A stretch of DNA of 64,000 nt from Promethearchaeota archaeon (GTDB taxonomy: Archaea > Asgardarchaeota > Heimdallarchaeia > Hodarchaeales > Hodarchaeaceae), in contig JBHLMN010000023.1 in assembly GCA_048938105.1 (NCBI GenBank), forward strand, positions 1 through 64,000, given 5' to 3'. The notes beneath the pieces are model-generated. The model did not search any database. It saw nothing but the letters and a program-made list of their open reading frames with translations, and was not told where the DNA came from. Positions 9,763-24,770 of this stretch are shown piece after piece (the first letter of the stretch is position 1; every line of letters starts with the position of its first letter). The translations under genes and the position numbers were made by a program.

Positions 9763-10101
9763 TCAATCAATTCTTGCTTTTGTGAGTAAAATACAGGCTA
9801 TTGGTAGGAAAACCAGAGAGATGATTATTACCACTCCGCAATAGGTAGTTGAAGTGAGGTATTCGAACAAAAGGAAAGTTCTTTCGTATATTGTTAACTT
9901 TAACGTTGCTAAGTTCAGATAAATAAGAAGAAATCCTAATTCAATCAATAAAGACTGACCAAATAGAATCCCCCCCCAAACTATATCGTTATCCGTTTGG
10001 CCCGTCATGATGTTTGTGAGTTTTACAGCGATCATACACGAAACCACTGTAAATAATACACCTTCAGAAAGACCAAAAACAAGATCAAGAACTGTATCCA
10101 T
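9763..10101 (-). CDS. Small three-TM membrane protein, first gene of the operon
   Basis: 112 aa, hydrophobic; AGGTG SD. Confidence 0.65.
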   Translation of the reverse strand: MDTVLDLVFGLSEGVLFTVVSCMIAVKLTNIMTGQTDNDIVWGGILFGQSLLIELGFLLIYLNLATLKLTIYERTFLLFEYLTSTTYCGVVIIISLVFLPIACILLTKARID

Positions 10102-10449
10102 ATCTCACACCTATGACTCAATCTCACTATTGCAAATGTTGACAAAATGTTATCTATTGATGTATGATTTTATTAATCTGTAACATAACAGAGAAATAAG
10201 ATATTTAATCTCCTAAGTATTTGAAAAACTAGGGACTTATCTTAATAAAGAATTGAAAGGAGATACATGGAGATTTTAGAGTTATTGGACTTGATCTTTC
10301 TCCCTTCATGGATTATCACCCCATTCTAAATTTTTTTGCACCAATTTATTATTCTAATCCTTTTAAAAGTCATCTATGTAAACCACCGATAAATTCCTAA
10401 AAACTTGATATAATTTAGGAGTTTATAATTCAGTAGCACTAAGATTTCA

Positions 10450-10860
10450 TTGGGAAAACTTATGGTAGTATATATCAGGGATCTTAATCTAAGAGAAAAA
10501 ATAGGGTATTTACTAAAGCATCATCAGGACTTTAAACGGTTTAAAATTGTGAAAGATGCAGAATTACAAGGCCAGTACGACAAAAAGTATTTTTTCGACT
10601 ATATTTTGGTAAATGAGCAAGAACAAAACATCATAGGTATTCTGATTAAGGATTGGGAGCGGTCCTGTGGCTATCAAATCATTTTAAATGCTGAGAAATA
10701 TCAAAAGGAATGTAACCTTAGTAAGGTCATTGTGATGAGTAATACTTTTTCGGAGGTCGCTCGATCTTGGAGTAAGAAATTAAACATCATTACGTTGTCT
10801 GATGGTGAGATAGGGTCGATTTTAATTTCCAGTTTTAATATGGAAGTTATTGAACCATAG
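10450..10860 (+). CDS. Mrr-like restriction endonuclease-fold protein
   Basis: FFDYIL...GILIKDW...VIVMSNTFSEVAR...NIITL follows the Mrr_cat pattern; the catalytic ExK is degenerate (LIK). Confidence 0.6.
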   Translation: MGKLMVVYIRDLNLREKIGYLLKHHQDFKRFKIVKDAELQGQYDKKYFFDYILVNEQEQNIIGILIKDWERSCGYQIILNAEKYQKECNLSKVIVMSNTFSEVARSWSKKLNIITLSDGEIGSILISSFNMEVIEP

Positions 10861-10996
10861 CTTCTTTATCCTATCTTCTTGTAGATTCTAGGTTTTTTAA
10901 TTATATTTTTAAAAATCTTTTTTATTTTCTTGAATGTCTATACACCCTCTTTAGGACTTTTAATCACTTTAAATCATTATATTGTGCTTGAATTTC

Positions 10997-11311
10997 TTAT
11001 TTAGTGAAAAAGAGTTGCTTCATTGAGGTCGTCAAATATTGCTTAGACGAATTACTATTAAGTCTTAAATCATAAATAACAGGTATTGTATCAGTAATAG
11101 TAGGATTTTTTGTAATAGTTGCACTCGGAGTTATTGAAGCATATTCAAGATTAGAAGGATTACATACTATAATTTCTGTATTGTGTTCCCAATTCTCAAT
11201 AAACAATCTTGTTTCAATTGAATTAGAAAGTGAGTAACGATATTCACTGCGAATATGTTCTGAAATAGAATCTCTTACAAATCGTAATTCATCAATACGA
11301 ATTCCCACCAT
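10997..11311 (-). CDS. Hypothetical protein, possibly a gene remnant
   Basis: 104-aa ORF; the frame is interrupted by TAG just upstream. Confidence 0.3.
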   Translation of the reverse strand: MVGIRIDELRFVRDSISEHIRSEYRYSLSNSIETRLFIENWEHNTEIIVCNPSNLEYASITPSATITKNPTITDTIPVIYDLRLNSNSSKQYLTTSMKQLFFTK

Positions 11312-11640
11312 CCAAATATTTGTTTCATCAATTAACTAGAAAAACAAGATTTTCCAAAAGTTAAAACCATTGTGGAGCACTAGTTGAAATAAAAGAATTT
11401 CTTACTTCTATTGATTTCATCGATCTTGGTGATTTCGGGCCTTAAAGGTGAAGAAGAGGTATTTCCTCCTTACTAATGATCCTGAAAATAAATATTATAC
11501 AAATATCATGATAATGAACTGAAATAATATTGTACTATCTTCATATTCGATATGACTTAAAAAATTAAACCATCTAACGGAACTAAAAAAGATTAAATCC
11601 CTTCAAGCAAAGTTTAATAAGAAATTTAGCTTTTCTATAG

Positions 11641-12153
11641 ATGGAGATGATCAAAGTGTCTTTTAAAAATTTAGGAAAAATTCTAAAAACTATCATCGAA
11701 GATAAATCTGGCTTTTTTAAAGAAATTAGTGCCATTCCTTTTGTAATAATGGGATTAATTGCATTAGGTGTGACATTCATGGCCATAGGAGATATGGATC
11801 CAGCCCGTACACAAAATCTCCTATTATTAATCTTTGGAAGTTTTGGGGCTTATCTATTTTTAATGAGAACATATTTTGATGACCCAAAGGAGAGAAATGA
11901 GAAACAACGAACTCATATAGGGTTCATACTCGTGCTAATCTTTCTCTACTCCTTCCCTAGTCTTCTCATATCAATTTTAATAACATCACTAGGAGGGGAA
12001 CTAGATTTTCAGAATACATATGAGGCATTTGTAAGCCTTGCAGATCTTTATTTTTTACTTTGTGGCTTAATTATCATTCTCTTCTTAATTTATCTCGCAA
12101 TAATCGATCAATTGAAGAAATGGGTAAAAATTGGAGAAGAAGAAGTGGGATAA
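11641..12153 (+). CDS. Four-TM membrane protein
   Basis: 170 aa with four hydrophobic segments. Confidence 0.6.
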   Translation: MEMIKVSFKNLGKILKTIIEDKSGFFKEISAIPFVIMGLIALGVTFMAIGDMDPARTQNLLLLIFGSFGAYLFLMRTYFDDPKERNEKQRTHIGFILVLIFLYSFPSLLISILITSLGGELDFQNTYEAFVSLADLYFLLCGLIIILFLIYLAIIDQLKKWVKIGEEEVG

Positions 12154-12366
12154 TTTCTCCTGTTGCGTAATTATGGAAATATTTGATATAACAGAAAAAG
12201 CTAGAGTAATTAATACTCCTAATAGAAGTCCACATATAACTCCAATGATGAATCCTTTCTTAAAACCCATTTTTTTATTCAACTCTTTTTTTTTATTTGA
12301 TATAATACCAATGTGAAAAAAAGAGATAAACACTAGATTCACTAAAGAACAAGAAATAATCTTCAT
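12085..12366 (-). CDS. Possible small membrane protein
   Basis: MGFKKGFIIGVICGLLLGVLI TM segment; overlaps the neighbouring gene end. Confidence 0.3.
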   Translation of the reverse strand: MKIISCSLVNLVFISFFHIGIISNKKKELNKKMGFKKGFIIGVICGLLLGVLITLAFSVISNISIITQQEKLSHFFFSNFYPFLQLIDYCEIN

Positions 12367-12599
12367 CGTCTAAAGTTGGAGAGAAATAATATTTGAATAC
12401 AATAGTCATGGACATGTTTTCGACTTGAATCTTCTGACTGAGATTATCTAGTACAATTAAAATACTGAACTGATCTTTGTAGGAAATTTCATATAGACAT
12501 AATATGTCATATTGAAATTCATTGATTGTGTAGTATTTTGAGTAAGTTCCTGATGAATTAGCTCTGAATAAGGCATGGGATCAAAATTTTCTCGGATTT

Positions 12600-12905
12600 T
12601 TAAATATTTTCTTTTAATTTCTGCGCTGCTTTCAGTGTCACTTCTGTTTTACTCTTTAATTCTTCAATATCAGATTCTTTTTTATATACCCACCAGTGTA
12701 TCTCATGAGGGAGTATTTCAGATGTGAAAGGAGTTAAATATTCGCTTACTCCAATAAAACGCCTTTCTCTCCCTCCTAGCGGGTGTTTATATACTAATTT
12801 ATTCATCTCTGTTGCAGCTTTCAATAAAAACCAGAAGAAATTGCCAAGTTTAAATGATGAACCAAGAAATAGTTTCTCATGAGAGTGGATTTCTTTAAAA
12901 TCCAT
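12600..12905 (-). CDS. Hypothetical protein
   Basis: 101-aa ORF with GAAGG SD. Confidence 0.55.
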   Translation of the reverse strand: MDFKEIHSHEKLFLGSSFKLGNFFWFLLKAATEMNKLVYKHPLGGRERRFIGVSEYLTPFTSEILPHEIHWWVYKKESDIEELKSKTEVTLKAAQKLKENI

Positions 12906-12978
12906 TTTAATCCTTCATTATAAAATAATCTTACATAATTTCCAAAATATTTAATATTATTTCAAGAGTAAAATTATT

Positions 12979-14976
12979 TCAAATTGTTAAATTTGGGATC
13001 GCAGAGTTGTTTAAATTCTTTAAATTATCCAACATCTTTAGAACCATCCCAAAAATAAGTCTAGTGTTCTCTAGATGCTCTTCATCTTCTATTTCACGAA
13101 ATAATTCATGAACATAACTGTTACGCAAATAACTAATTTTAGAAATTTCTCTTTTTCGAATCCCTAGAAAATTAGCTACAGATTTCCCGTTCCCACTAAG
13201 ATTATCTTTTGGTTTTCCATTTTCATCCAATGGCAAAGTTAAATTATATTTAATTCGAATACTCCTCACAAAAGCCTCGAAAAAAGATGAGGACAATTTA
13301 TTTAAGGAGAATAAATCATTTTTCGCTATTAAAGAAATTTCAACGGTAAATTCTTTTGTTATTTCACTTTTTAATGGTAAATCAAGTATGTAGTGAGCCT
13401 CTATTATTTCAAAAAATTTTTCAAGAAGTTCTATTTTACTTTTATAAAATGGCACCTCTTTTTTTGGTAGGCTTAATTCTATACTTCTCATGCTATTCAG
13501 TACATTAAATGATAAGTCTTTGAGAATATTGTCTCTAAAAATTTCTATTAGTTTTAATGAAAGTATTCTTTTATTAGTACTTGGAACCAAATCAATAGAT
13601 TCAATAGAAACAATTTTAATGGCATCTTCATTAGAAAGTGGCTGTGTTAACCTCTCTACTTCCTTATTAAGGAAATTTGAATAATCAAATCTTTGGAAAA
13701 GATGATTCATGAGTATTACATTTAAGAATAAAAAAAGTAATGGAAAAAGCATAATACCTAATGATCTGGATAATATCTCTTCATACGCCAAGTCTTCTGA
13801 GTTCATCAGAGCTCCAAAAGCTGCAATTCCTAGGAAAAAATAAGAAATAGCTTCAATTATATTTAATCTTTTGAGGTTCGAACGAACATCGTCTAAAATC
13901 CATAGTAACATAATAATATAGATAACTTCAAGAATTAAAATAATTAACATAAATAAAGGATCAGCAATGTCAACACCATTGATGAAAAAGATAGGCAATA
14001 TAAAGACGCTAAATAAAATGACAAAAACTCTCTGAACAATTGAAGGAGAGTTGATTGGAGCTAGAGAAAGTTTCTTAATAATATTAATCGCGCGAGGATA
14101 GGTTAAAACCAAAAAATTTAGGTTATTTGCAATAAAGAGATAAAAAGTATTACCCCATGGTATATTTTCGTTTGGTTTGTAGGTAAACAATATTTTTGGG
14201 TTAAAAGTTATAAAACTCATTAGTATAATTACACAGAGGGCAACAAACAAAACTCCCTTGTTAATTTCCTCAAGTTTCTCTGAATCAATTTTTGTAAATA
14301 ATCTACTATGTATTAACACCCCTATTAGATAAAAAAACCAAAGGCCAAAACCTATCATAAAAATAGCTTCTACAAGGTTGTATATTGAGTGTTTTAGGTA
14401 TGTATCTAACAAAGCATTGGAATTAATCACCAGAAAAATCGGGGAAAATGATGCGATTAGAGTAATACATAATTGAACTCTAGTTAAAACATATGATCTA
14501 GATGGAATTATCCCAAAAAAAAAAGAATTTTTCTCTAATTTAAAGAAAATTGGAGTAATAACCAAAATTCCTGAAATAATACTTAAACCACCACCATACA
14601 ACCAAATACCTCGAAAAGGGTGGTTAATAAAAAGGGAAGCATCTATAAGATACAACCCAACTATCACGAAAACTGGTAATAAGGTAAAAAACAAAGTTTT
14701 AAATGGTTTTTCGAGTGTTTTCTCTATGAATGTTAATGACGACTGATCTTTTAACAAAAAAACTTTGATGAAGATAATACAAGTCATTAAGAATACGAGG
14801 TTGTAACTCAACATACCAAGATCGAAAAAGAGATTTGAAATTCTTAAAAAAGTAGATAAATAGAAGAGTGTTAAAGTAGTCAAAAGCCCAAAATAAACTG
14901 AATAGAAATCAGTATGACTCCATATTTTTCCGAATATTTCTTTAGCTTTATGTAATAAGTTCATATAATTCCCCAA
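12979..14976 (-). CDS. Polytopic membrane protein with a C-terminal HEPN-like domain
   Basis: About 12 hydrophobic segments in the first ~430 aa; helical C-terminus with SFFEAFVR and LRNSYVH (RxxxxH). Confidence 0.6.
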   Translation of the reverse strand: MGNYMNLLHKAKEIFGKIWSHTDFYSVYFGLLTTLTLFYLSTFLRISNLFFDLGMLSYNLVFLMTCIIFIKVFLLKDQSSLTFIEKTLEKPFKTLFFTLLPVFVIVGLYLIDASLFINHPFRGIWLYGGGLSIISGILVITPIFFKLEKNSFFFGIIPSRSYVLTRVQLCITLIASFSPIFLVINSNALLDTYLKHSIYNLVEAIFMIGFGLWFFYLIGVLIHSRLFTKIDSEKLEEINKGVLFVALCVIILMSFITFNPKILFTYKPNENIPWGNTFYLFIANNLNFLVLTYPRAINIIKKLSLAPINSPSIVQRVFVILFSVFILPIFFINGVDIADPLFMLIILILEVIYIIMLLWILDDVRSNLKRLNIIEAISYFFLGIAAFGALMNSEDLAYEEILSRSLGIMLFPLLFLFLNVILMNHLFQRFDYSNFLNKEVERLTQPLSNEDAIKIVSIESIDLVPSTNKRILSLKLIEIFRDNILKDLSFNVLNSMRSIELSLPKKEVPFYKSKIELLEKFFEIIEAHYILDLPLKSEITKEFTVEISLIAKNDLFSLNKLSSSFFEAFVRSIRIKYNLTLPLDENGKPKDNLSGNGKSVANFLGIRKREISKISYLRNSYVHELFREIEDEEHLENTRLIFGMVLKMLDNLKNLNNSAIPNLTI

Positions 14977-15024
14977 TTCTAAAAATGAGACAAAATTACC
15001 ACGAAAATTTTAGTCTTTGAAGTT

Positions 15025-15744
15025 TTAATAACGAGGTCTTTTCCCTTCTTTTATCATTTGAGCGACTTTTTTCACGTCTTCGGCATGTTTTGTTTTCCAT
15101 CCTTTTTTAATTAACCAAAGTTTTACAGAACGAGGGTCATATTCAATATTACTTGACTTTAATCTTTGAAATAACCTTATTGCTTCTCTTCTATCGGATG
15201 GATGTGAAATACCAGTCGAAAGGTTTACACCAAGAGTTAAAGATTCTAATTCATCAGCGATTTCACTGCTTATTGCTAATGTACTTCGATATTGTTTGCC
15301 AGTTAGATATTCAGTAGGAGACCATGTATCTAACCAATTCATAATATCATTTTCCCCCCAAGGAATGATAAAAACATCCTTGAGCTCATAGACATTATCA
15401 ATTTTATCGATTAAAGAAGGCATTGGAAAAATTGCCAAAACTGGTCCATCAAACCTTATTATATCAATACGATCAGTCATTAAATGAAATTTATATCCAT
15501 CTTTGGTTATAAATTTATTGGATTTAAGTAATCCTTTGATCATATTTTCAGGAAAAACAGTTGAGATGTCAGACAACTTTAATTGATTTTTAGTGGGAAC
15601 AACAATTAGTCCTTTCCCTTTTTCAGGAATTTTTTCCAACAACCATTTAAAACCAATCTGTATAGCTTTTTGGATCTTTTCTTTAAAAGCACCTTTCAAT
15701 TCTTTAACATCAATATAATAGTTATTACGTTCTCTACCCTTCAA
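15025..15744 (-). CDS. Hypothetical protein with a DUF1889/YoaC-like C-terminal helical domain
   Basis: VNLSTGISHPSD...GW...A..V..I.EGK tail resembles recalled DUF1889-type proteins; GGTGGGTGA SD. Confidence 0.45.
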   Translation of the reverse strand: MKGRERNNYYIDVKELKGAFKEKIQKAIQIGFKWLLEKIPEKGKGLIVVPTKNQLKLSDISTVFPENMIKGLLKSNKFITKDGYKFHLMTDRIDIIRFDGPVLAIFPMPSLIDKIDNVYELKDVFIIPWGENDIMNWLDTWSPTEYLTGKQYRSTLAISSEIADELESLTLGVNLSTGISHPSDRREAIRLFQRLKSSNIEYDPRSVKLWLIKKGWKTKHAEDVKKVAQMIKEGKRPRY

Positions 15745-15941
15745 GTTGATTCACCCACCTTTCAATTTGAAAAATTTCTTTTAAACGTTAATTTTAGTTG
15801 GGTTACTAAAAGTGTTTAGATTTATAATGAGTATAAAAGTCTAAGAATGATATATATTATTATATTATGGGAAATTTATAAACTCCATATACTCGAAACA
15901 TAAGAGTATATAATCATTAAAGTTTTGAATACAAGAAGTTT

Positions 15942-17018
15942 TTGGAAGTATTAAGGTTTTATTTGAAAAAGAATATCAATGATTACTGGGGTCTTTGTTT
16001 GAATAGAACTGAAAGGATGAGACTAATAAAAAAAATAGAAGAAGAAACAAAATCTAGAATGCTTATCTATATTACAGGTGACAGAAAGAATCTCGAAACA
16101 AAAATAGCAACTGATGTATTCCCGTTCATTACAAATCATCTAAATAAATTTCAAGAGGAGTACGGTGTTGAACATATCTCACTATTTATATATAGCACAG
16201 GAGGACTTATAGTAGCTGGTTTTGCTTTGGTAAATTTAATCAGAGAATATTGCAAGAAATTCACCGCGATTGTACCATTTAAAGCACATAGCTGCGCTAC
16301 ATTACTTACATTTGGAGCAAATAATATAATTATGAGCAAACTAGGCCAATTCACACCAATTGATCCTTCAATTTCATCACCTTTAGGACCAAAAATTGAT
16401 TTACCAAATATTCCAAGTCGTACTATTCCAGTAAATGTAGAGGATCTTAATGCATATATAGATATGGCAAAAAGCTTAGGAATTAGCAAACAGGAGTATC
16501 TGTGTAGTATATTTGAATATCTGACTGAGAATATTCATCCACTAGTTCTAGGTCAATCATATCGAGTAAGGGAACAAATTAAATTTTTAGCTGCCAATTT
16601 ATTGAAATCTGCAGGTTATTCAGAGGATGAAATCAATAAGATCGTTGATATATTTACAGTTGGGAGATATTCTCATGACTATGTTATCAGTAGACGTGAG
16701 GCCAAAGAAATATTTGGACTGAAAATTGCAGATATTTCCTCTAGTCTTGAAGCTGATATTTTTGAATTATTTCAAGGGTATAGCGAAATGTTAAAATTAA
16801 GCATTCCTTACTCTCTAGATTTAATACTTGGAGAATCAGATGAGGTTACAGCAGCTTTAGATAGTGCAATTATCGAATCGACTGACTTAACTTATGTGTT
16901 TAGAACCGAAAGAAAGGTTGAAAGAGTTCAATTAGTACCCCCTCAAGTTCCTGCTCCCCAATTGATACCAATGGAAAGAATAATAAGACAAGAATGGATG
17001 TTAGATAATAGAGTCTAA
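15942..17018 (+). CDS. SDH-family ClpP/crotonase-fold serine protease
   Basis: LFIYSTGG, VPFKAHSCATLLTFGA (catalytic Ser), QFTPIDP, YSHDYVISRREAK. Confidence 0.85.
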   Translation: MEVLRFYLKKNINDYWGLCLNRTERMRLIKKIEEETKSRMLIYITGDRKNLETKIATDVFPFITNHLNKFQEEYGVEHISLFIYSTGGLIVAGFALVNLIREYCKKFTAIVPFKAHSCATLLTFGANNIIMSKLGQFTPIDPSISSPLGPKIDLPNIPSRTIPVNVEDLNAYIDMAKSLGISKQEYLCSIFEYLTENIHPLVLGQSYRVREQIKFLAANLLKSAGYSEDEINKIVDIFTVGRYSHDYVISRREAKEIFGLKIADISSSLEADIFELFQGYSEMLKLSIPYSLDLILGESDEVTAALDSAIIESTDLTYVFRTERKVERVQLVPPQVPAPQLIPMERIIRQEWMLDNRV

Positions 17019-17038
17019 ACAACTAAAGGGTATGTGAA

Positions 17039-17302
17039 ATGTATACAAGAGATGAAAAGAAAGCCATCAATTCTTGGAGTATTACATCTGGTCTTACAAC
17101 GGCCTCCCAACTAGTTGATTCTACAGGTATTCAACCTAGTTCACACTATAATGATTATACTGGTCAAGATATTCCTTTACAACAGTTCATCATACCTCAG
17201 AACAACACACAACAAAAAAATATTTCTGAGATGATCGAAGAAGCAATGAATGAATCAAATCTTGAAAATGAACGTGCATTACGAAAACTAGCTAACTTAT
17301 AA
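17039..17302 (+). CDS. Putative Doc antitoxin
   Basis: Directly upstream of doc; C-terminal helix EEAMNESNLENERALRKLA resembles Doc-neutralising antitoxin tails. Confidence 0.6.
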   Translation: MYTRDEKKAINSWSITSGLTTASQLVDSTGIQPSSHYNDYTGQDIPLQQFIIPQNNTQQKNISEMIEEAMNESNLENERALRKLANL

Positions 17303-17325
17303 TTCTTTTTTTTCCTTTTTAAAAT

Positions 17326-17712
17326 ATGTTTTTTCTTTTAAGGGAAGACATTATCAAGATACATGATGATCAAATCTCCCGCTATGGAGGAGAATCAGGA
17401 ATATTACTTAGTGATAATTTAGATTTATGTGCTACAAATTATAAAAATAAGCTTTTTGGGAAAAAAACGTTTCCAGGTTTAATAAATAAAGCAGCGGCTC
17501 TGTTGAGAGACATCATAAAATTACATCCTTTTGTTGATGGTAATAAAAGGACTGCTTTTCAATGTGCGAATACTTTTTTAAAATTAAATGGATATTCAAT
17601 CTATACGAAGGGTTTTGAAGTAATTATAACTACAATGACGATAGCATCTTGTGAATGGGAATTTGACGAAGCAACTAAATGGATTCAACGATATATACAA
17701 TATAGAAAGTAA
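17326..17712 (+). CDS. doc: Death-on-curing (Doc/Fic family) toxin
   Basis: IHDDQISRYGGESG, KAAAL, HPFVDGNKRTA. Confidence 0.92.
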   Translation: MFFLLREDIIKIHDDQISRYGGESGILLSDNLDLCATNYKNKLFGKKTFPGLINKAAALLRDIIKLHPFVDGNKRTAFQCANTFLKLNGYSIYTKGFEVIITTMTIASCEWEFDEATKWIQRYIQYRK

Positions 17713-18001
17713 AAAAATGAATTCGGGTCATCTCTTCAAAATTTAATACTTTATTTGTCATATAATATAATAAGAGAACCAACAATCATAACAATGGTCA
17801 ATAATCACTACATAAGGGATAAAATGATAGTGATAGTAAAACACAAGTGTGATAATTGGAATAATTCTCTCTAAAAATTTTCTCATGATAGGTGCATACC
17901 AAAAAAGTTGATAACAATCTTGCCTCTCCTGAAGCAAGAATATAGACCCTATCGAATTTATTTAATCTTCGAATTTCGTCTCTGATGAAGGACATCTTTT
18001 T

Positions 18002-18292
18002 TTAATTCCTTAGATTTTTGCATAAATCTTTAGAATAAGAATACTCAGTCATTTGTATCCATTTGTCAAGATTTTGTTGGATGTAATGAATAATAGAATC
18101 CTTTTTATCGAAGTCTGCCTCCCAGGAGATTTGTCCACACCAAAGACACTTATAGGTTACTTTCGTGATCTCATAAAAATCCTCATCCTTAAGCTTCTTT
18201 AAAGTGAGTGTTAATAAATGAGGTCTACAATCGGTTAATTTCTTACAGCAATATTTACAATAAACAAAGGCTCTTCTTTCAATTTCAGTCAA
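18002..18292 (-). CDS. Small zinc-ribbon protein
   Basis: CKYC...CLWC; GAGGAAGTGA SD. Confidence 0.55.
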   Translation of the reverse strand: MTEIERRAFVYCKYCCKKLTDCRPHLLTLTLKKLKDEDFYEITKVTYKCLWCGQISWEADFDKKDSIIHYIQQNLDKWIQMTEYSYSKDLCKNLRN

Positions 18293-18402
18293 ATGTTTAT
18301 CACTTCCTCAAATTTTCATCTGACTCTATACCAATGGCAAAAAAACGACACAGAAGATCCTTAATGGAAAGTTTCTTGTTTATGAATAGTTTTAAGTATT
18401 TT

Positions 18403-18798
18403 TTACTGGTGTTCAGGTTCTTTCACCTCTTTTAAATGAGTAGGATGGATCATATACCTCTCTTTCTTTCCTTTCTCCTTTTTCTCCAGAATCAGTCCCC
18501 CTTCCACTAATTTTTTAAAATTAAGATAGCTAGTGTTTATTTCACTGCGAAGATTACGGCATATCTCTTTGTAAGTATACCCCGATCGCTTGGGATAAGT
18601 CCGTAGAAAGCTCAGGATTAACTGCTTCACACAATAATCGAGATCTTCCCTAACTTTCGCCAATCGATCTAAATATAACTCAATCGATATCGGCTTGTTC
18701 ACCAAGTCGTTATATTCTTGAATGCGAAGGTTGATTCGATCCTCTATAGCCAGGACTTGACTTTTCAATTTCATGGCTTGAATCTGCTGACTCTCCAT
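18403..18798 (-). CDS. Winged-helix DNA-binding protein with an N-terminal coiled coil
   Basis: YTYKEICRNL...FKKLVEGGLILEKK...RYMI. Confidence 0.6.
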   Translation of the reverse strand: MESQQIQAMKLKSQVLAIEDRINLRIQEYNDLVNKPISIELYLDRLAKVREDLDYCVKQLILSFLRTYPKRSGYTYKEICRNLRSEINTSYLNFKKLVEGGLILEKKEKGKKERYMIHPTHLKEVKEPEHQ

Positions 18799-18988
18799 GT
18801 GCCCAATTGCCGTCGAAAAACGGATTCGTCTGAAGCAACCATGGCATGTTTTGGTTTAGCAAAAAGGGGAGCTAGGAGTAAGAGGAGAACGGGTAGTACC
18901 TCATTTAGAAGAAATTTTAAAATCGTTTTCAGATCCAAATTATGGAACAAGAACATTTACTTTTAATTTATTTCCATATTCAAACCTT

Positions 18989-19405
18989 GTGAGACATAAT
19001 AATTTTTTAAAAATGCCAAGGCATTTGATTGAAGATGTGAAAGCAAATGAAGCTGGTGTTATCATGATGGGTTACTGGTGTGAAGGCCCAGATTGGATGA
19101 GTAGATTTGGTGAGGTATACAGTGCGACAAGGTTAGCAGCTTTTCATAATAGAACTGGTAGACGTTTAGTTAGAGACATCGATGAGTGTATGGACGAAAT
19201 TATTAGATGGGTATCTGGTGGTGAAGATGTATTAGAAGGAAGAGAGAGATTGGCAATTAATCCAAGTCAATGGGAAGTAATTCTATCTTTATTAGAGCTA
19301 GAGAGCTATACTACCATTATTCGCTGGACAACCAATGTTATTCTCAAGTTAATCGCAAAATACTTCAAATACATGAATAATATCCAGATTCATGATGAAT
19401 TATAG
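18989..19405 (+). CDS. Hypothetical protein
   Basis: 138-aa ORF; the frame stays open for 43 codons beyond its TAG. Confidence 0.5.
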   Translation: MRHNNFLKMPRHLIEDVKANEAGVIMMGYWCEGPDWMSRFGEVYSATRLAAFHNRTGRRLVRDIDECMDEIIRWVSGGEDVLEGRERLAINPSQWEVILSLLELESYTTIIRWTTNVILKLIAKYFKYMNNIQIHDEL

Positions 19406-20091: not shown

Positions 20092-21780
20092 TTGAGAAAA
20101 ACAGTTGTAAGATCATCAAATATACTTCTCACCTTGGCTGGTATTGGCATATTGACGATAATTCTCGGTATTCTTTACTTTTCAGGTGCTGGAGGTATTG
20201 AAGGTGAACTTTTTTATGGATTTAATTATGGTGTACTATTAGCTTTTGGTTTCTACTTATCCTTAATAGGACTTTTTCCTGTCTTAACATCATTAGATGC
20301 AAGTGGAAAAAATACCATAAAAAAATTTTATCCTCATTTACTCCTTATAACTGGTATTGGAGTAATTTTCTTGATTTATTCATCTTTAGTTCCCCATACT
20401 CTTGCACCATTAACTCCTAGCCATACATGGTTTGATTATTATATTTTAGGTGCCGTGTTAATCATTTTTGGTTTCTCATCGATTCTGTTGGCCATTCGTG
20501 AACGTGAGAGGTTATGGAATTTTAAAATAATTCTATTCATCATATTTATAATTGGAATCCTCATTGAAATTGCCAGTTTATTAACTTATTTCGATCTTTT
20601 AGAGTCTTTTGACATCGAAAAGAGCATGTGGCTCACTTTTTACCTATTTGGAGGCGTAATATTATTCATTGGAATGATTCCCCTCTTAATAGGTGCCAGT
20701 TCGAGGTTTCGTTCAATTATCCATCGTTTAAGATTTATATGGATCTTAATAGCATTAATCGGAATAGTTACCTATGTTATTCCAACTTTAGCGATCAATG
20801 AAATTCTTCCTCTAACAGTATTTGAGTTTATGAATTACTTTGATTTCTTATTATTTGGCAGTCTTGCTATATTAATTAGTCTTTTATTAATTTCAGCTTC
20901 AGATGAAGCTTATGACTTTATTTACAGGCTTCGTTTTGTATTCCTGTTTCTCCTCCTTGTGGGAACTATCCAACTAATTATTTCTTTTGTACTTGTACTT
21001 CCCACCTCAGAGTACATTGATATTCCACAACTTGAACTTATTCCTCTAATGACAGTATCTGACTATCCAAATACTTTTGGAATGCTAATGTTGGTAGGAA
21101 TGACTTGGGACGTATATTATGTCAATGGAATAATAATGACTTTTATCTCTATCATATTCATATGCTCAATTGTATTTTTCGAATCTGAAGAAATTAGTGT
21201 TGATATTGGAGCACTTATGGCTGTTGAAGACGATAAATTACCTGGTATTGATACGACACCAAGTGAGATGTTAGCTTATTTAGAAATTGTGAATAGATCC
21301 CAAGTAGAAATGATTAAGTATTTCAAAGAAGCTTTTAGACAAGACAGATTCCGAGGACGAACATTTGAAGCAATAACTAAACAATATCAAGATCTAAATA
21401 AACTGATAAAGACAAAGATAAACTCCTACCGAGAGAAAGTCCCAAGTAGTGCTAAATTTTTGTTTGATGCAGCATTAAGTGAAGAACCGACAGCTGTTAT
21501 TTCTGAACCAACAATAACTCCTTCCATTCCAGAAGAAAGAAAGCCTCCAACTCCACCTCCAAGTGTCCCACCACCATCCCCTCCTATACCTACCACTGGT
21601 CCTCCTATCCCAACCCCATCCCCTATTGCGCCTCCTCCCGCTCCTGTTACCGCACCCGCTCCCCCAGCACAATCCTCTCTTGATTTAATAGCAGATGCCA
21701 GATCTACAAGTATAGCTGAATTACGTGGAGAGATGCTAAAGGAGTTGTCAAGACTGCGAGAGATATTCAAAGAAGATTAA
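20092..21780 (+). CDS. 10-TM membrane protein with cytoplasmic helical hairpin, polyproline linker and WH2-like C-terminal helix (paralogue 1)
   Basis: Five 2-TM repeats; PPTPPPSVPPPSPP tract; tail LDLIADARSTSIAELRGEMLKELSRLREIFKED. Confidence 0.8.
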   Translation: MRKTVVRSSNILLTLAGIGILTIILGILYFSGAGGIEGELFYGFNYGVLLAFGFYLSLIGLFPVLTSLDASGKNTIKKFYPHLLLITGIGVIFLIYSSLVPHTLAPLTPSHTWFDYYILGAVLIIFGFSSILLAIRERERLWNFKIILFIIFIIGILIEIASLLTYFDLLESFDIEKSMWLTFYLFGGVILFIGMIPLLIGASSRFRSIIHRLRFIWILIALIGIVTYVIPTLAINEILPLTVFEFMNYFDFLLFGSLAILISLLLISASDEAYDFIYRLRFVFLFLLLVGTIQLIISFVLVLPTSEYIDIPQLELIPLMTVSDYPNTFGMLMLVGMTWDVYYVNGIIMTFISIIFICSIVFFESEEISVDIGALMAVEDDKLPGIDTTPSEMLAYLEIVNRSQVEMIKYFKEAFRQDRFRGRTFEAITKQYQDLNKLIKTKINSYREKVPSSAKFLFDAALSEEPTAVISEPTITPSIPEERKPPTPPPSVPPPSPPIPTTGPPIPTPSPIAPPPAPVTAPAPPAQSSLDLIADARSTSIAELRGEMLKELSRLREIFKED

Positions 21781-22267
21781 ATTTTGGTAATTCAATATTA
21801 TTCAATGATAGAAAAATCCCCATATTTATATTCCGATTCATTGAGTTCAGGTTATGATTGAGAAGCTTTTTAATAAGAATCATCACGAAAACGGTTTATA
21901 AGAGAGAAAAACAGTTTTCTTACCTCCCATTTTTTTGGTTTATTATTTGATAAAAAAAATCAATGTTATCCCCTTCTGAAGCATGAAAAATGACTTTTTT
22001 CTTATCAATTGACCTAGTTTTCTTCTATGAGTATAAATTCGGAATAAAACAACGAAATTTGTTCCCATCTGTACAACATAACCACGATTTCGATGATCTT
22101 AGTATACTCGAAAATGACTCAAAATGTTCTTCTGGATTTTTAAAAAAGGAGTAATAGTCTCAGAAGAGTTAATTCGCCTCATTGTTGTAGAATTATAAAT
22201 CTCTATTAGTCCCCGATCGATTAGAAGAAGAATCTCTATATTTATCCCTGATTTATAAGAAGAGGAA

Positions 22268-22348
22268 TTTCACTAGACTTTATAAGTAAACTTTTGATAT
22301 AATGATAATAATTGGTTTTATAGTATTGATGATTAGGAGTTTATTTTG
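22268..22348 (+). promoter_or_regulatory. Conserved promoter/5' region of membrane-polyPro paralogue 2
   Basis: TTTCACTAGACTTTATAAGTAAACTTTTGATATAATGATAATAAT...AGGAG; TATA TTTATAA. Confidence 0.65.
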
Positions 22349-24040
22349 TTGAGAAAAATGGTAGTTAGATCATCAAAAGTGCTTCTTACTCTGGCTGGTA
22401 TTGGTATACTGATCATGGCCATTGCTCTATTATTTTTCACAGGAGTAGCATCATCAGTTGACATTACTACAGATCCTCCAACGTGGAATCGCTTAGTTTT
22501 TGGATTTGATTATCAGACTTTAACTGCATTTGGATTTTTCTTATTACTATTCCTTTCACCCGTTCTTGCCTCTTTAGATACCAATGCAAAAAAGAGTGTT
22601 AAAAAAATATATGTTTACTTGGTCTTACTAGTTGGTATGGGCATTATAATGCTGATTTATTCAGCTTTAGTCTATGGAGAATTTCTTAATCCATTTGATC
22701 CCCTTCATTCATGGTTTGATTATTATATTATTGGTGCATTGCTGATTATCATTGGTTTGGCAATCATCTTATTTTCTGTCCAGGATCGTGAACGATTGTG
22801 GAATTTCAAGCTTCTCTTTGCATTAATTATTTTAATTGGACTTCTACTGGAAATCTTAAGTTTAATTCTTTATAGTCAAGTTATAGTTATGCCAGAAATT
22901 GGATGGGACATTTCTTTCTTGTTGGGGGTTATAACACTATTCATCGGAGTGGTTCCTCTTTTATTGACTGCTAGTACACGCTTCCGTAATATTCTTCGCC
23001 GCTTGGGAATTATTTGGATATTAGGTGTATTAATTGGAATCGTAATAATCATTATTTCCAGTTTAGTTTATGCTGAGATTATTCCTCAATCACTTGTTCT
23101 CGATACTGATTGGTTTGTAATCTTAGCTTATGGCAGCCTTTTCACCTTATTATTTATTTTGTTACTAGCGAGTGTAGGATATGAGATTACCTATAAATTA
23201 CGATTTATATGGTTGATTACCTTTTTCCTTGGAGTAATATTTGTTATTATTTCTGTGGTTTTAGTCTTACCTGAATCACCTGAAATTGAGGGAGCTGTCG
23301 GAACACTCATTGGAAATGATTTCCTCGGAGCAACCTGGGATATATTTTACATGTATGGAACCATAATTATGATTTTTTCCCTCTCATTCATATCTTCGGT
23401 TTTGTATTTTGAAACAGAAGAGTATAGTGGCCCAGAAGGTTTATTAGAAAGTGTAGATAGACTACCTGATATTGAAACCACTCCAAGTGAGATGATAGCA
23501 TATCTGGAGATTCTAAGTAAATCCCAAGAAAACATAATTAATCAGTTCAAAGAAGCAGTTAGGGCAGATAAGTTTCGACCACGAGTTTATGAATCCATAG
23601 TTAAAATATACCAAGATCGTAATCGAATTATAAAATCGAGAATAGAAAAATTTCAGAAGGCGGGTCACCTAGTTTCAGCAGGAGAGGATGTAGAAGCACT
23701 CTTTGATGTAGCATTAGGAGAACCTTCTGAAGTTACTCCAATAACCAAACCAGCAGCTCCACCTACAGTATCTACAGCCGAAGTACCACCTGGACCCCCG
23801 CCTATCTCCGTTAAGGCTCCTCCAACTGGCCCGCCTGTTCCGCCTCCCTCAATCACTCTACCCACTCCACCCCCTAGTCCATTAGAAAGTGCTCCTCCTG
23901 CTCCTGGAGCTACAGTCACTCAACCCACAGAGTCTCCACTTGATTTAATAGCTGATGCAAGGTCAACAAGTATTGCAGAGTTGAGAGGGGAAATGCTAAA
24001 GGAGTTACGAAGACTGCGAGAGATCTTCAAAGAAGAATAG
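22346..24040 (+). CDS. 10-TM membrane protein with helical hairpin, polyproline linker and WH2-like C-terminal helix (paralogue 2)
   Basis: Same architecture as 20092-21780; last 33 aa are 31/33 identical. Confidence 0.8.
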   Translation: MLRKMVVRSSKVLLTLAGIGILIMAIALLFFTGVASSVDITTDPPTWNRLVFGFDYQTLTAFGFFLLLFLSPVLASLDTNAKKSVKKIYVYLVLLVGMGIIMLIYSALVYGEFLNPFDPLHSWFDYYIIGALLIIIGLAIILFSVQDRERLWNFKLLFALIILIGLLLEILSLILYSQVIVMPEIGWDISFLLGVITLFIGVVPLLLTASTRFRNILRRLGIIWILGVLIGIVIIIISSLVYAEIIPQSLVLDTDWFVILAYGSLFTLLFILLLASVGYEITYKLRFIWLITFFLGVIFVIISVVLVLPESPEIEGAVGTLIGNDFLGATWDIFYMYGTIIMIFSLSFISSVLYFETEEYSGPEGLLESVDRLPDIETTPSEMIAYLEILSKSQENIINQFKEAVRADKFRPRVYESIVKIYQDRNRIIKSRIEKFQKAGHLVSAGEDVEALFDVALGEPSEVTPITKPAAPPTVSTAEVPPGPPPISVKAPPTGPPVPPPSITLPTPPPSPLESAPPAPGATVTQPTESPLDLIADARSTSIAELRGEMLKELRRLREIFKEE

Positions 24041-24059
24041 GCCCTTTGAGGGATTTTTA

Positions 24060-24770
24060 ATATCAAAAAAAGGATTAAACAGATCTGAAGAGATCTCAAA
24101 ACAAGCGGCTGCAACTGAAGCTTTAAATTTTCTTTCCTCTGGCCAATATGTAGGGATAGGTAGTGGAACGACTATACATTGGTTAATATCACTCTTACCT
24201 GAAACTAAAATCTCCAATCTTTTTTTGGTACCTTCCTCTTTAGATACTCTAGTGAGATTACAAAATAATATCAAACAAAACTATAAAATTGTTGATCTAC
24301 CACCTCATGGTTTGGATATCACTATCGATGGAGCAGATAAAGTTAATCCAGAGAAGCAATCTGTAAAAGGGGGAGGAGGGGCATTAACACGCGAGAAAAT
24401 CATAAGGGAAGCTTCAAAGAAGTTTATTTTGATAGTTAGCTCTGAAAAAGTTGTTCCAAAGCTTCCTATGTTCCCAATTGCAGTTGAGATCCTTCCTTTC
24501 GGATGGAGACATACTATTAAACGTCTAGAATTGTTTGGAAAAAAAGCTATTCTACGGATAGCTAAGAACAAGCTTGGTCCAGTTATTTCCGATAATAACG
24601 GATATATAGTTGATCTTGATCTAGGTGATCGATTTCTTGAACCTAATGAAGTTCAAACATTAGAAGATAAACTGAATACTATTCCAGGAGTAATTGAGAA
24701 CGGGTTGTTCGGTCATGCTGCTGATGAAGTAATTGTTGGACACAATTCAGGAAATATCACAAGATATTAG
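24060..24770 (+). CDS. rpiA: Ribose-5-phosphate isomerase A (N-terminus extends upstream of the track start; probable ATA start)
   Basis: DGADKV, KGGGGALTREKI, PGVIENGLF; in-frame KQAAATEAL...VGIGSGTT begins at 24099. Confidence 0.93.
   Translation: MSKKGLNRSEEISKQAAATEALNFLSSGQYVGIGSGTTIHWLISLLPETKISNLFLVPSSLDTLVRLQNNIKQNYKIVDLPPHGLDITIDGADKVNPEKQSVKGGGGALTREKIIREASKKFILIVSSEKVVPKLPMFPIAVEILPFGWRHTIKRLELFGKKAILRIAKNKLGPVISDNNGYIVDLDLGDRFLEPNEVQTLEDKLNTIPGVIENGLFGHAADEVIVGHNSGNITRY

Follow-up and report, generated by a model that had tools for sequence, protein, structure and literature searches.

Several described systems combine a proline-rich segment with a short conserved element. In actin regulators of the WASP, WAVE and WIP type, a proline-rich segment precedes the WH2 motif (PF02205), which binds G-actin in the cleft between subdomains 1 and 3. 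This motif consists of a conserved amphipathic helix of three turns and, at a fixed short distance behind it, an L-basic-basic-hydrophobic element of the L-K-K-T/V type, and the hosts of these proteins possess actin and profilin. The EVH2 part of Ena/VASP proteins joins an oligomerising or anchoring head to a proline-rich arm and conserved C-terminal helices, ESCRT-III proteins carry a terminal, amphipathic, Leu/Arg-rich MIM1 helix after a proline-rich stretch, and bacterial tethers (ZipA, the C-terminal peptide of FtsZ, ParR-ParM) combine an anchor in the membrane or on DNA, a long flexible proline-rich linker and a small conserved element on which a cytoskeletal protein docks. Among archaeal proteins, the C-terminal helix of Pyrobaculum arcadin-2 binds a hydrophobic groove of crenactin, and the arcadin-2 gene lies in the crenactin cluster (PMC5173319, PDB 5LY3). 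Asgard archaea possess actin, profilin and gelsolin that resemble those of eukaryotes, and protrusions filled with actin are seen in cultured members; our literature search turned up neither an Asgard actin-membrane linker nor an Asgard nucleation or elongation factor. Here we analysed a stretch of 64,000 nucleotides (the window) from a Promethearchaeota archaeon (assembly GCA_048938105.1, contig JBHLMN010000023.1, positions 1 to 64,000), in which two tandem genes encode the polytopic membrane proteins paralogue A (P0001) and paralogue B (P0002). Both proteins end in a cytoplasmic helical hairpin, a proline-rich arm of ~60-90 aa and a nearly invariant end helix. The best-supported reading is that their family is an undescribed membrane-embedded adaptor, which would show a docking helix on a flexible arm.

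The sequence-only reading of this locus had described two adjacent paralogues, and both ORFs were found at the coordinates given, on the plus strand. Aligned from end to end, the two proteins share 46% identity (BLASTP E 4e-117). An AlphaFold2 model of the whole protein, built from a 48-sequence alignment, comprises ten confident transmembrane (TM) helices, the hairpin (pLDDT ~77), a disordered stretch (residues 442-529) and a terminal helix (residues 531-563). When modelled alone, the membrane domain reached a pLDDT of 90 and a pTM of 0.87. Profile-profile comparison of its 2-TM units gave probabilities of 88-97% among the neighbours u2 to u5 (u2-u3 96.7%, u3-u4 97.4%, u4-u5 97.3%), with u1 weaker, which supports the suggested architecture of five 2-TM repeats. 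Furthermore, 16 Lys and Arg residues of paralogue A fall in the N-terminus and the even-numbered loops versus 1 in the odd-numbered loops, indicating that both termini, the even loops and the whole C-terminal part, including the tail as originally proposed, are cytoplasmic. In the model, the membrane domain gives the impression of hairpins stacked in a row, not of a transporter bundle.

No known structure or family was recognized in these proteins. Foldseek searches of the PDB gave no match for the whole-protein model and none at E<=0.001 for the TM-only model. The best VIA-align rows for the latter were designed helical-repeat proteins (5cwq_A, Z 8.6, rmsd 5.2, 219 aligned; 8qai_B, Z 8.1), which appears to be the noise level for any helical repeat, and the modelled domain seems to have no convincing structural relative. 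The nearest structural neighbours of the ten-helix domain are thus de novo designed proteins, with no natural membrane proteins among them. In the ESM Atlas, a search by shape gave TM-scores by query of 0.23 or below throughout, and a search by features gave no usable match. The hairpin domain matched nothing below E 0.08 among PDB sequences, and Pfam searches with the whole proteins and their C-terminal halves (E<=10) returned sub-threshold noise only (OAR motif, pRN1_helical). Consistent with the earlier suggestion of an undescribed family, no such family was found in the literature searched, and no membrane-anchored, proline-rich actin regulator has been described there for Asgard archaea.

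A docking function is proposed for the end helix. The last 33 residues of the two paralogues are identical at 31 of 33 positions, as had been noted before, the differences being S/R at B555 and D/E at the last residue. The DNA of the two tails shows ~12 synonymous versus 2 replacement differences, and the identity is therefore due to purifying selection on the peptide and not to gene conversion or a nucleotide element. In the family tree, paralogue A groups with P0052, P0062 and P0063 in a deep, separate clade, far from paralogue B (with P0004 and P0005); the duplication is therefore old, yet the tail has not drifted. In a set of 48 homologues that, taken as whole proteins, are as little as 44% identical to P0002, nearly every tail position within 532-563 is invariant, and this near-invariance also holds over ~125 Asgard homologues. 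Tail conservation is far beyond chance. Across the phylum actin itself is 72-85% identical, and the end-helix peptide is conserved more strictly than that.

The pattern of conservation suggests how the helix may work. T541, S542, I543, L546, R547, E549, M550, L551, E553, L557 and F561 are invariant or nearly so in distant orthologues and sister forms, with R or K at position 556, and the alignments agree with the module core consensus (T/S)-x-(I/L)-(A/S)-x-L-R-x-(E/Q)-M-L-x-E-(L/I)-x-(R/K)-(L/I)-(R/K). The conserved positions lie on the 80-280 degree face of a helical wheel and the variable positions (545, 548, 552, 555 and 559) lie opposite, so that I543, L546, R547, E549, M550, L551, E553, L554, L557 and F561 make up a broad, near-invariant face. 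One conserved face on a helix of about six turns would fit a helix lying in the groove of a partner. From this pattern, the end helix is probably a docking peptide for a conserved cytoplasmic partner. The UIM, IQ and RPEL readings of the tail were dropped by eye, because spacing or key residues misfit or are not conserved in distant orthologues.

The end helix has a net charge of 0, a mean hydrophobicity of -0.33 and a hydrophobic moment of 0.41. A helix that binds lipid, either folding back on the bilayer or bridging to a second membrane, would agree with this moment and with the position of the amphipathic helix behind a flexible linker, which resembles that of the membrane-targeting sequences of MinD and FtsA. 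However, this is barely plausible given the mean hydrophobicity and the zero net charge, the invariant polar residues, which would be unexpected in such a helix, and the fact that the protein is already integral to the membrane.

The family was found in Asgard genomes only. A word-indexed search with the whole protein returned 66 relatives; each bears an Asgard label (Heimdall, Hodarchaeales, 'Promethearchaeota' and others), and a Pfam domain is absent from all of them. With the 37-residue tail as query, HMMER was run exhaustively against 1.84 billion representatives and gave 18 clusters, again from Asgard genomes only. Setting aside fragments and one soluble Odin protein (P0070, described below), the clusters consist of polytopic proteins from Odin, Thor and Hodarchaeales genomes that are 540-630 aa long and share the layout and core helix, and a second tail search allowing longer proteins gave 125 matches, all of them such membrane proteins or fragments. 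Comparison by hhalign showed a distant relationship of the 600-aa forms to the membrane domain encoded in the window (P0080, 98.1%, E 1e-13; Odin P0077, 97.5%, E 6e-12). The polytopic gene lies just upstream of rpiA, the tRNA-splicing endonuclease gene (endA) and the rpl3-rpl4-rpl23-rpl2 operon in Hodarchaeales relatives, Heimdall LC3 and an Odin genome. These are positional orthologues from Odin to Heimdall, and the family is therefore an old, core Asgard gene. It is present once in a distant relative and twice, in tandem, in the source genome and a few others. Its place is the same at the loci L019, L020, L065, L066 and L067, an unusually stable synteny for a gene without an evident link to translation.

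The arm and end helix also occur apart from the ten-helix domain. In the source genome, the end-helix profile matched exactly four ORFs at E<1e-13, namely the two membrane proteins and two soluble paralogues. The soluble proteins are 40% identical to each other; in both, a basic N-terminus and a helical part are followed by a Pro/Ser/Thr arm and a related end helix; the genes around them (for inositol-1-phosphate synthase, a Ras-like GTPase, TetR, flavodoxin and an ABC transporter) offered no telling link. The same end helix stands at the C-terminus of coiled-coil proteins with G-P-P repeats (family f10), and a diverged form ends single-pass membrane proteins with a coiled-coil region and S-G-G-P-P repeats (family f7; L071:607-1566, L072:532-1575). 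The module thus seems to have been joined to membrane anchors more than once. Moreover, the soluble 344-aa protein P0070 from an Odin metagenome-assembled genome (L021:8001-9035) carries three tandem end-helix motifs at its N-terminus, ahead of an uncharacterised helical C-terminal part; its gene adjoins radA, and nothing telling was found in the neighbourhood. By hhalign, the heads of the module carriers have no detectable mutual homology, with the hairpin domain scoring below 1% probability against the soluble heads. The disordered proline-rich arm and the end helix form a portable module on unrelated heads.

The presence of four proteins with related helices in one genome raises the question of whether these helices pair with each other. 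As a self-association coiled coil, like the C-terminal tetramerisation helix of Ena/VASP, the end helix would cluster the membrane proteins or bridge them to the soluble carriers. A heptad-like hydrophobic stripe (543, 546, 550, 554, 557 and 561) and many possible i/i+4 salt bridges at zero net charge are compatible with this, as is the sole match of the tail among PDB sequences, a designed toroid repeat of the helix-loop-helix type. Nevertheless, phylum-wide invariance of the polar residues R547, E549, E553 and T541 would be unusual for a simple coiled coil, which should tolerate K/R, D/E and I/L/V exchange, a Glu occupies a core-like position, and the three tandem copies in the Odin protein suit a ligand motif better. 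We regard self-association as improbable.

The only contextual pointer to a partner comes from family f10. In these genomes, the gene for the coiled-coil protein with proline-rich arm and end helix lies upstream of a gene for an actin-related protein (ARP) on the same strand, and this ARP is 44% identical to the actin of the source genome. Within a sample of 41 f10 genomes, 36 had a strong helix match, and an ARP orthologue lay <=2.2 kb from the end-helix gene in 34 of these 36, spread over 7 genera; one of the two exceptions is a contig end, and the other has the genes on different contigs. The two genes are directly adjacent or have one PIG-L-family (deacetylase) gene between them. Because ARP identity within the set goes as low as 60% and the genes on the outer sides of the pair vary from genus to genus, the pair looks maintained and not merely inherited. 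This linkage of a soluble form of the module to an ARP gene is new here, and it agrees with the precedent of arcadin-2, an archaeal protein whose only actin-binding element is a short C-terminal helix apart from its body and whose gene likewise adjoins an actin-family gene. An actin-family partner is thus our best guess, and we put the chance that an actin-fold protein receives the end helix at somewhat short of even. The parallel with arcadin-2 has limits, as the two share no known sequence similarity and arcadin-2 is soluble and sequesters monomers, whereas actin binding by the Asgard helix is a proposal. Moreover, arcadin-2 relies on a Trp for binding (PMC5173319), and the Asgard end helix has no Trp.

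A number of observations weigh against an actin-fold partner. The f10 linkage counts as a single event at the level of a lineage. It involves a sister form of the helix (~45% identical to the window tail) and an ARP instead of actin, and gene linkage does not say that the end helix itself is the contact. No linkage to actin-family genes was seen in families f22-f25 or for the end-helix genes of other lineages compared by coordinates. The window's own genes adjoin ribosomal-protein operons, not cytoskeletal genes. In addition, the end helix is modelled as one continuous helix of ~33 residues, which exceeds the three turns that occupy the cleft of actin when a WH2 is bound. The Pro runs of the arm are short, and polyproline binding by Asgard profilins is weak or absent (PMC8410842). 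Finally, an hmmscan search with both proteins and their C-terminal halves gave no match to PF02205 at E<=10, and a six-frame scan of the whole genome at the same threshold gave four weak matches to this family, none of them in the window's contig.

The profile searches bear directly on the sequence-only reading, in which the tail was taken for a WAVE-type WH2-like motif. As a special case of an actin partner, the tail would be a true divergent WH2, homologous to that of WAVE/WASP, and the proteins would work in the membrane as nucleation or elongation factors, supplying the ends of filaments with profilin-actin. Locally, the tail does resemble the WAVE WH2 (an Arg, hydrophobic residues at +4 and +7, an Arg at +8, a Gly and L-R-R-L). 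A proline-rich segment lies upstream, the three tandem copies in the Odin protein recall tandem-WH2 nucleators, and the arm of the Heimdall LC3 orthologue has G-P-P-P-L-P-type units like the VASP peptide that LC3 profilin binds weakly. Known WH2-like motifs also vary (LRRV, LKHV, LVDV; PMC9433394). However, besides the missing profile match, L554-R-R-L557 aligns with L-R-R-V of WAVE only with a 2-residue insertion, and neither proposed anchor is conserved: other residues replace 'DARS' in the 600-aa forms and the Odin repeats, and in place of the first Arg of 'LRRL' (R555) paralogue A has Ser and relatives have E, G, N, Q or K, R/K556 being kept. Two invariant Glu residues (E549 and E553) fall inside the supposed linker and basic motif, and conservation continues two turns past the LKKV-like site, where WH2 domains are unconserved. 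Compared with WH2 proteins, the Asgard helix is also longer, is conserved to its very end, stands at the extreme C-terminus without a C/A region and is attached to a ten-helix membrane domain. These data give WH2 identity a slim chance. Of the points that bear on the earlier reading, the architecture, the cytoplasmic tail, the restriction to Asgard archaea and the lack of a described family in the literature searched are supported, and one gene context now ties the wider module to an actin-family gene, but the assignment of the tail to WH2 is not supported by its sequence.

The proline-rich arm calls for a similar qualification. It is 59-71 aa long in paralogues A and B (family median, 71 aa) and not conserved in sequence, with 37-44% Pro in the two genes and ~75% Pro, Ser, Thr and Ala. 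A proline-rich arm before the tail is thus present, but 'polyproline' was a generous term, as the longest Pro run is 3 in both genes and 2-6 across the family. Heimdall LC3 profilin showed only millimolar binding to the VASP peptide, and Loki and Odin profilins showed none (PMC8410842). The source genome has a single actin gene (441.8 bits; L005:1474-2613), as assumed earlier, but the profilin assumed alongside it corresponds to a profilin-like gene (L006:1501-1866) at 22.6-23.3 bits, under the 25-bit cut-off.

Ena/VASP proteins offer a further comparison. The layout of these Asgard proteins is like that of EVH2, and the M-L ... R-R pattern of the end helix recalls the F-actin-binding (FAB) motif of Ena/VASP. 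The Asgard proteins differ in having one helix only and in being membrane-embedded, and neither paralogue matched the Pfam families of Ena/VASP EVH1 or VASP at E<=10. In a broader version of the actin reading, the end helix might be an ancient Asgard actin-binding peptide, a forerunner of WH2/FAB-type motifs or convergent with them. In that case, the polytopic proteins would sit in the membrane as actin tethers or elongation factors and capture actin at the cell surface membrane, or profilin-actin via the arm. This full version, which goes well beyond an actin-fold partner as such, we regard as quite unlikely.

The partner may also belong to another conserved Asgard machine, such as the MIT domain of Vps4, which would take the end helix as a MIM1-like helix after a MIM2-like proline-rich stretch, a small GTPase or trafficking complex, or the ribosome or translocon. 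The genome encodes two Vps4-type MIT-AAA proteins (MIT domains at L008:1483-1740 and L007:1456-1700) and a third MIT-AAA protein, and a helix at the extreme C-terminus after a proline-rich segment is the arrangement of the MIMs of ESCRT-III. The MIM1 consensus is a C-terminal (D/E)xxLxxRLxxL(K/R). M550, L554, L557 and R558 have MIM1-like spacing, but the consensus is not matched even in the best register, M550-x-x-E553-L554-x-x-L557-R558, in which the invariant Glu E553 replaces the key Arg. Unlike ESCRT-III proteins, those studied here have no Snf7 domain, and no ESCRT gene was found in the neighbourhoods examined, where the one conserved linkage is to an actin-family gene. In a wide VIA search, residues 377-445 superposed on generic helical hairpins (Z 8-9), among them ESCRT-I, CHMP4B and the cytoplasmic domain of archaeal ribophorin I; the likeness was discarded as non-specific, since such Z values are noise for helical hairpins. 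That the gene has kept its location beside rpiA, endA and the rpl3 operon all the way from Odin to Heimdall might point to a housekeeping function or one tied to translation, although a tail of zero net charge is unlike the basic tails that bind ribosomes. Docking to one of these other machines is on the unlikely side, but it is a serious alternative to an actin-fold partner.

Returning to an actin-fold partner, we propose the following model. The row of five TM hairpins would serve as membrane anchor or scaffold, from which the cytoplasmic helical hairpin, a disordered proline-rich arm of ~70 residues and an amphipathic docking helix of ~25 residues would extend in this order. The end helix would insert into the groove of a highly conserved cytoplasmic protein and thereby tie it to the membrane with a reach of up to some 20 nm. 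In the source genome, this partner would be its single actin, whose hydrophobic groove would be occupied as by the helices of arcadin-2, ParR or WH2-type proteins. The proline arm would provide the necessary distance and might, in addition, offer profilin a weak site. This arrangement is similar in principle to that of the bacterial tethers, but the proteins and partners are unrelated, and here the putative docking element is on the membrane protein.

The features of the locus and of the other module carriers are listed in Table 1. The true start of paralogue B may be the ATG four codons in, because the database copy has 560 aa. Downstream of the pair, the gene order in the window agrees with that of the relatives, with rpiA (~24048-24770), a PIN/ATPase gene, endA and rpl3. 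The rpiA frame (24048-24770, plus strand) is open from 24048, and the RpiA domain begins at residue 61 of the frame. Its first ATG, GTG or TTG, at 24225, would remove the N-terminus as judged from the 236-aa RpiA of a relative, suggesting that rpiA starts at a non-canonical codon just past the stop of paralogue B. Upstream of paralogue A, window positions ~10000-19400 have a low GC content (28-33% versus 35-39% elsewhere) and hold mostly family-less ORFs, together with genes for a ClpP-like SDH-type protease (15942-17018) and a Fic/DOC protein (17326-17712), the latter with a small ORF before it. Two relatives have the rpS13-S4-S11 genes directly upstream of the membrane gene in place of this stretch, which therefore looks like an inserted island. 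The public sequencing runs that hold the locus are DNA only, from sediment and mangrove metagenomes in small shares; no RNA set is listed, and the runs are silent on expression.

Table 1. Coordinates of the paralogue pair, its parts and the related end-helix genes. Plain ranges are window positions.
Feature	Location	Strand	Remarks
Paralogue A (P0001)	20092..21780	+	562 aa, TTG start
Paralogue A, membrane domain	20092..21201	+	~aa 1-370; ten predicted TM helices in five hairpin repeats, N-in/C-in
Paralogue A, cytoplasmic helical hairpin	21253..21447	+	~aa 388-452; family-invariant residues; mapped from paralogue B, offset +10
Paralogue A, disordered Pro/Ser/Thr/Ala-rich arm	21448..21678	+	
Paralogue A, end helix (putative docking helix)	21679..21777	+	aa 530-562; Ser where B has R555
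Spacer between paralogues	21781..22345	.	565 bp; no ORF >=60 aa
Paralogue B (P0002)	22346..24040	+	564 aa
Paralogue B, membrane domain	22346..23425	+	aa 1-360; ten predicted TM helices in five hairpin repeats; model pLDDT 90
Paralogue B, cytoplasmic helical hairpin	23477..23671	+	helices 380-406 and 412-441
Paralogue B, disordered proline-rich arm	23672..23938	+	pLDDT below 50
Paralogue B, end helix (putative docking helix)	23939..24037	+	aa 532-564; nearly invariant in family
Soluble end-helix paralogue 1	G000:C61:26501-26587 (L003:841-1623)		260 aa
Soluble end-helix paralogue 2	G000:C39:155135-155218 (L004:973-1629)		218 aa
f10 pair (example)	L061:3236-6026	-	end-helix protein L061:5334-6026, ARP L061:3236-4354; likewise L062, L063, L064 and 30 further f10 genomes

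In summary, this Asgard family is built like a tether, and the f10 pair of end-helix protein and ARP provides a concrete, testable pair. If actin is the partner, the family would bear directly on the origin of membrane-directed actin assembly; if the partner is another protein, the end helix would mark a hub interaction into which many Asgard proteins plug. Should the end helix prove to be an ancient actin-binding peptide, it would represent a prokaryotic antecedent of membrane-directed actin assembly in the style of WASP, VASP and formins, and it would offer a molecular handle on how Asgard archaea build their protrusions.

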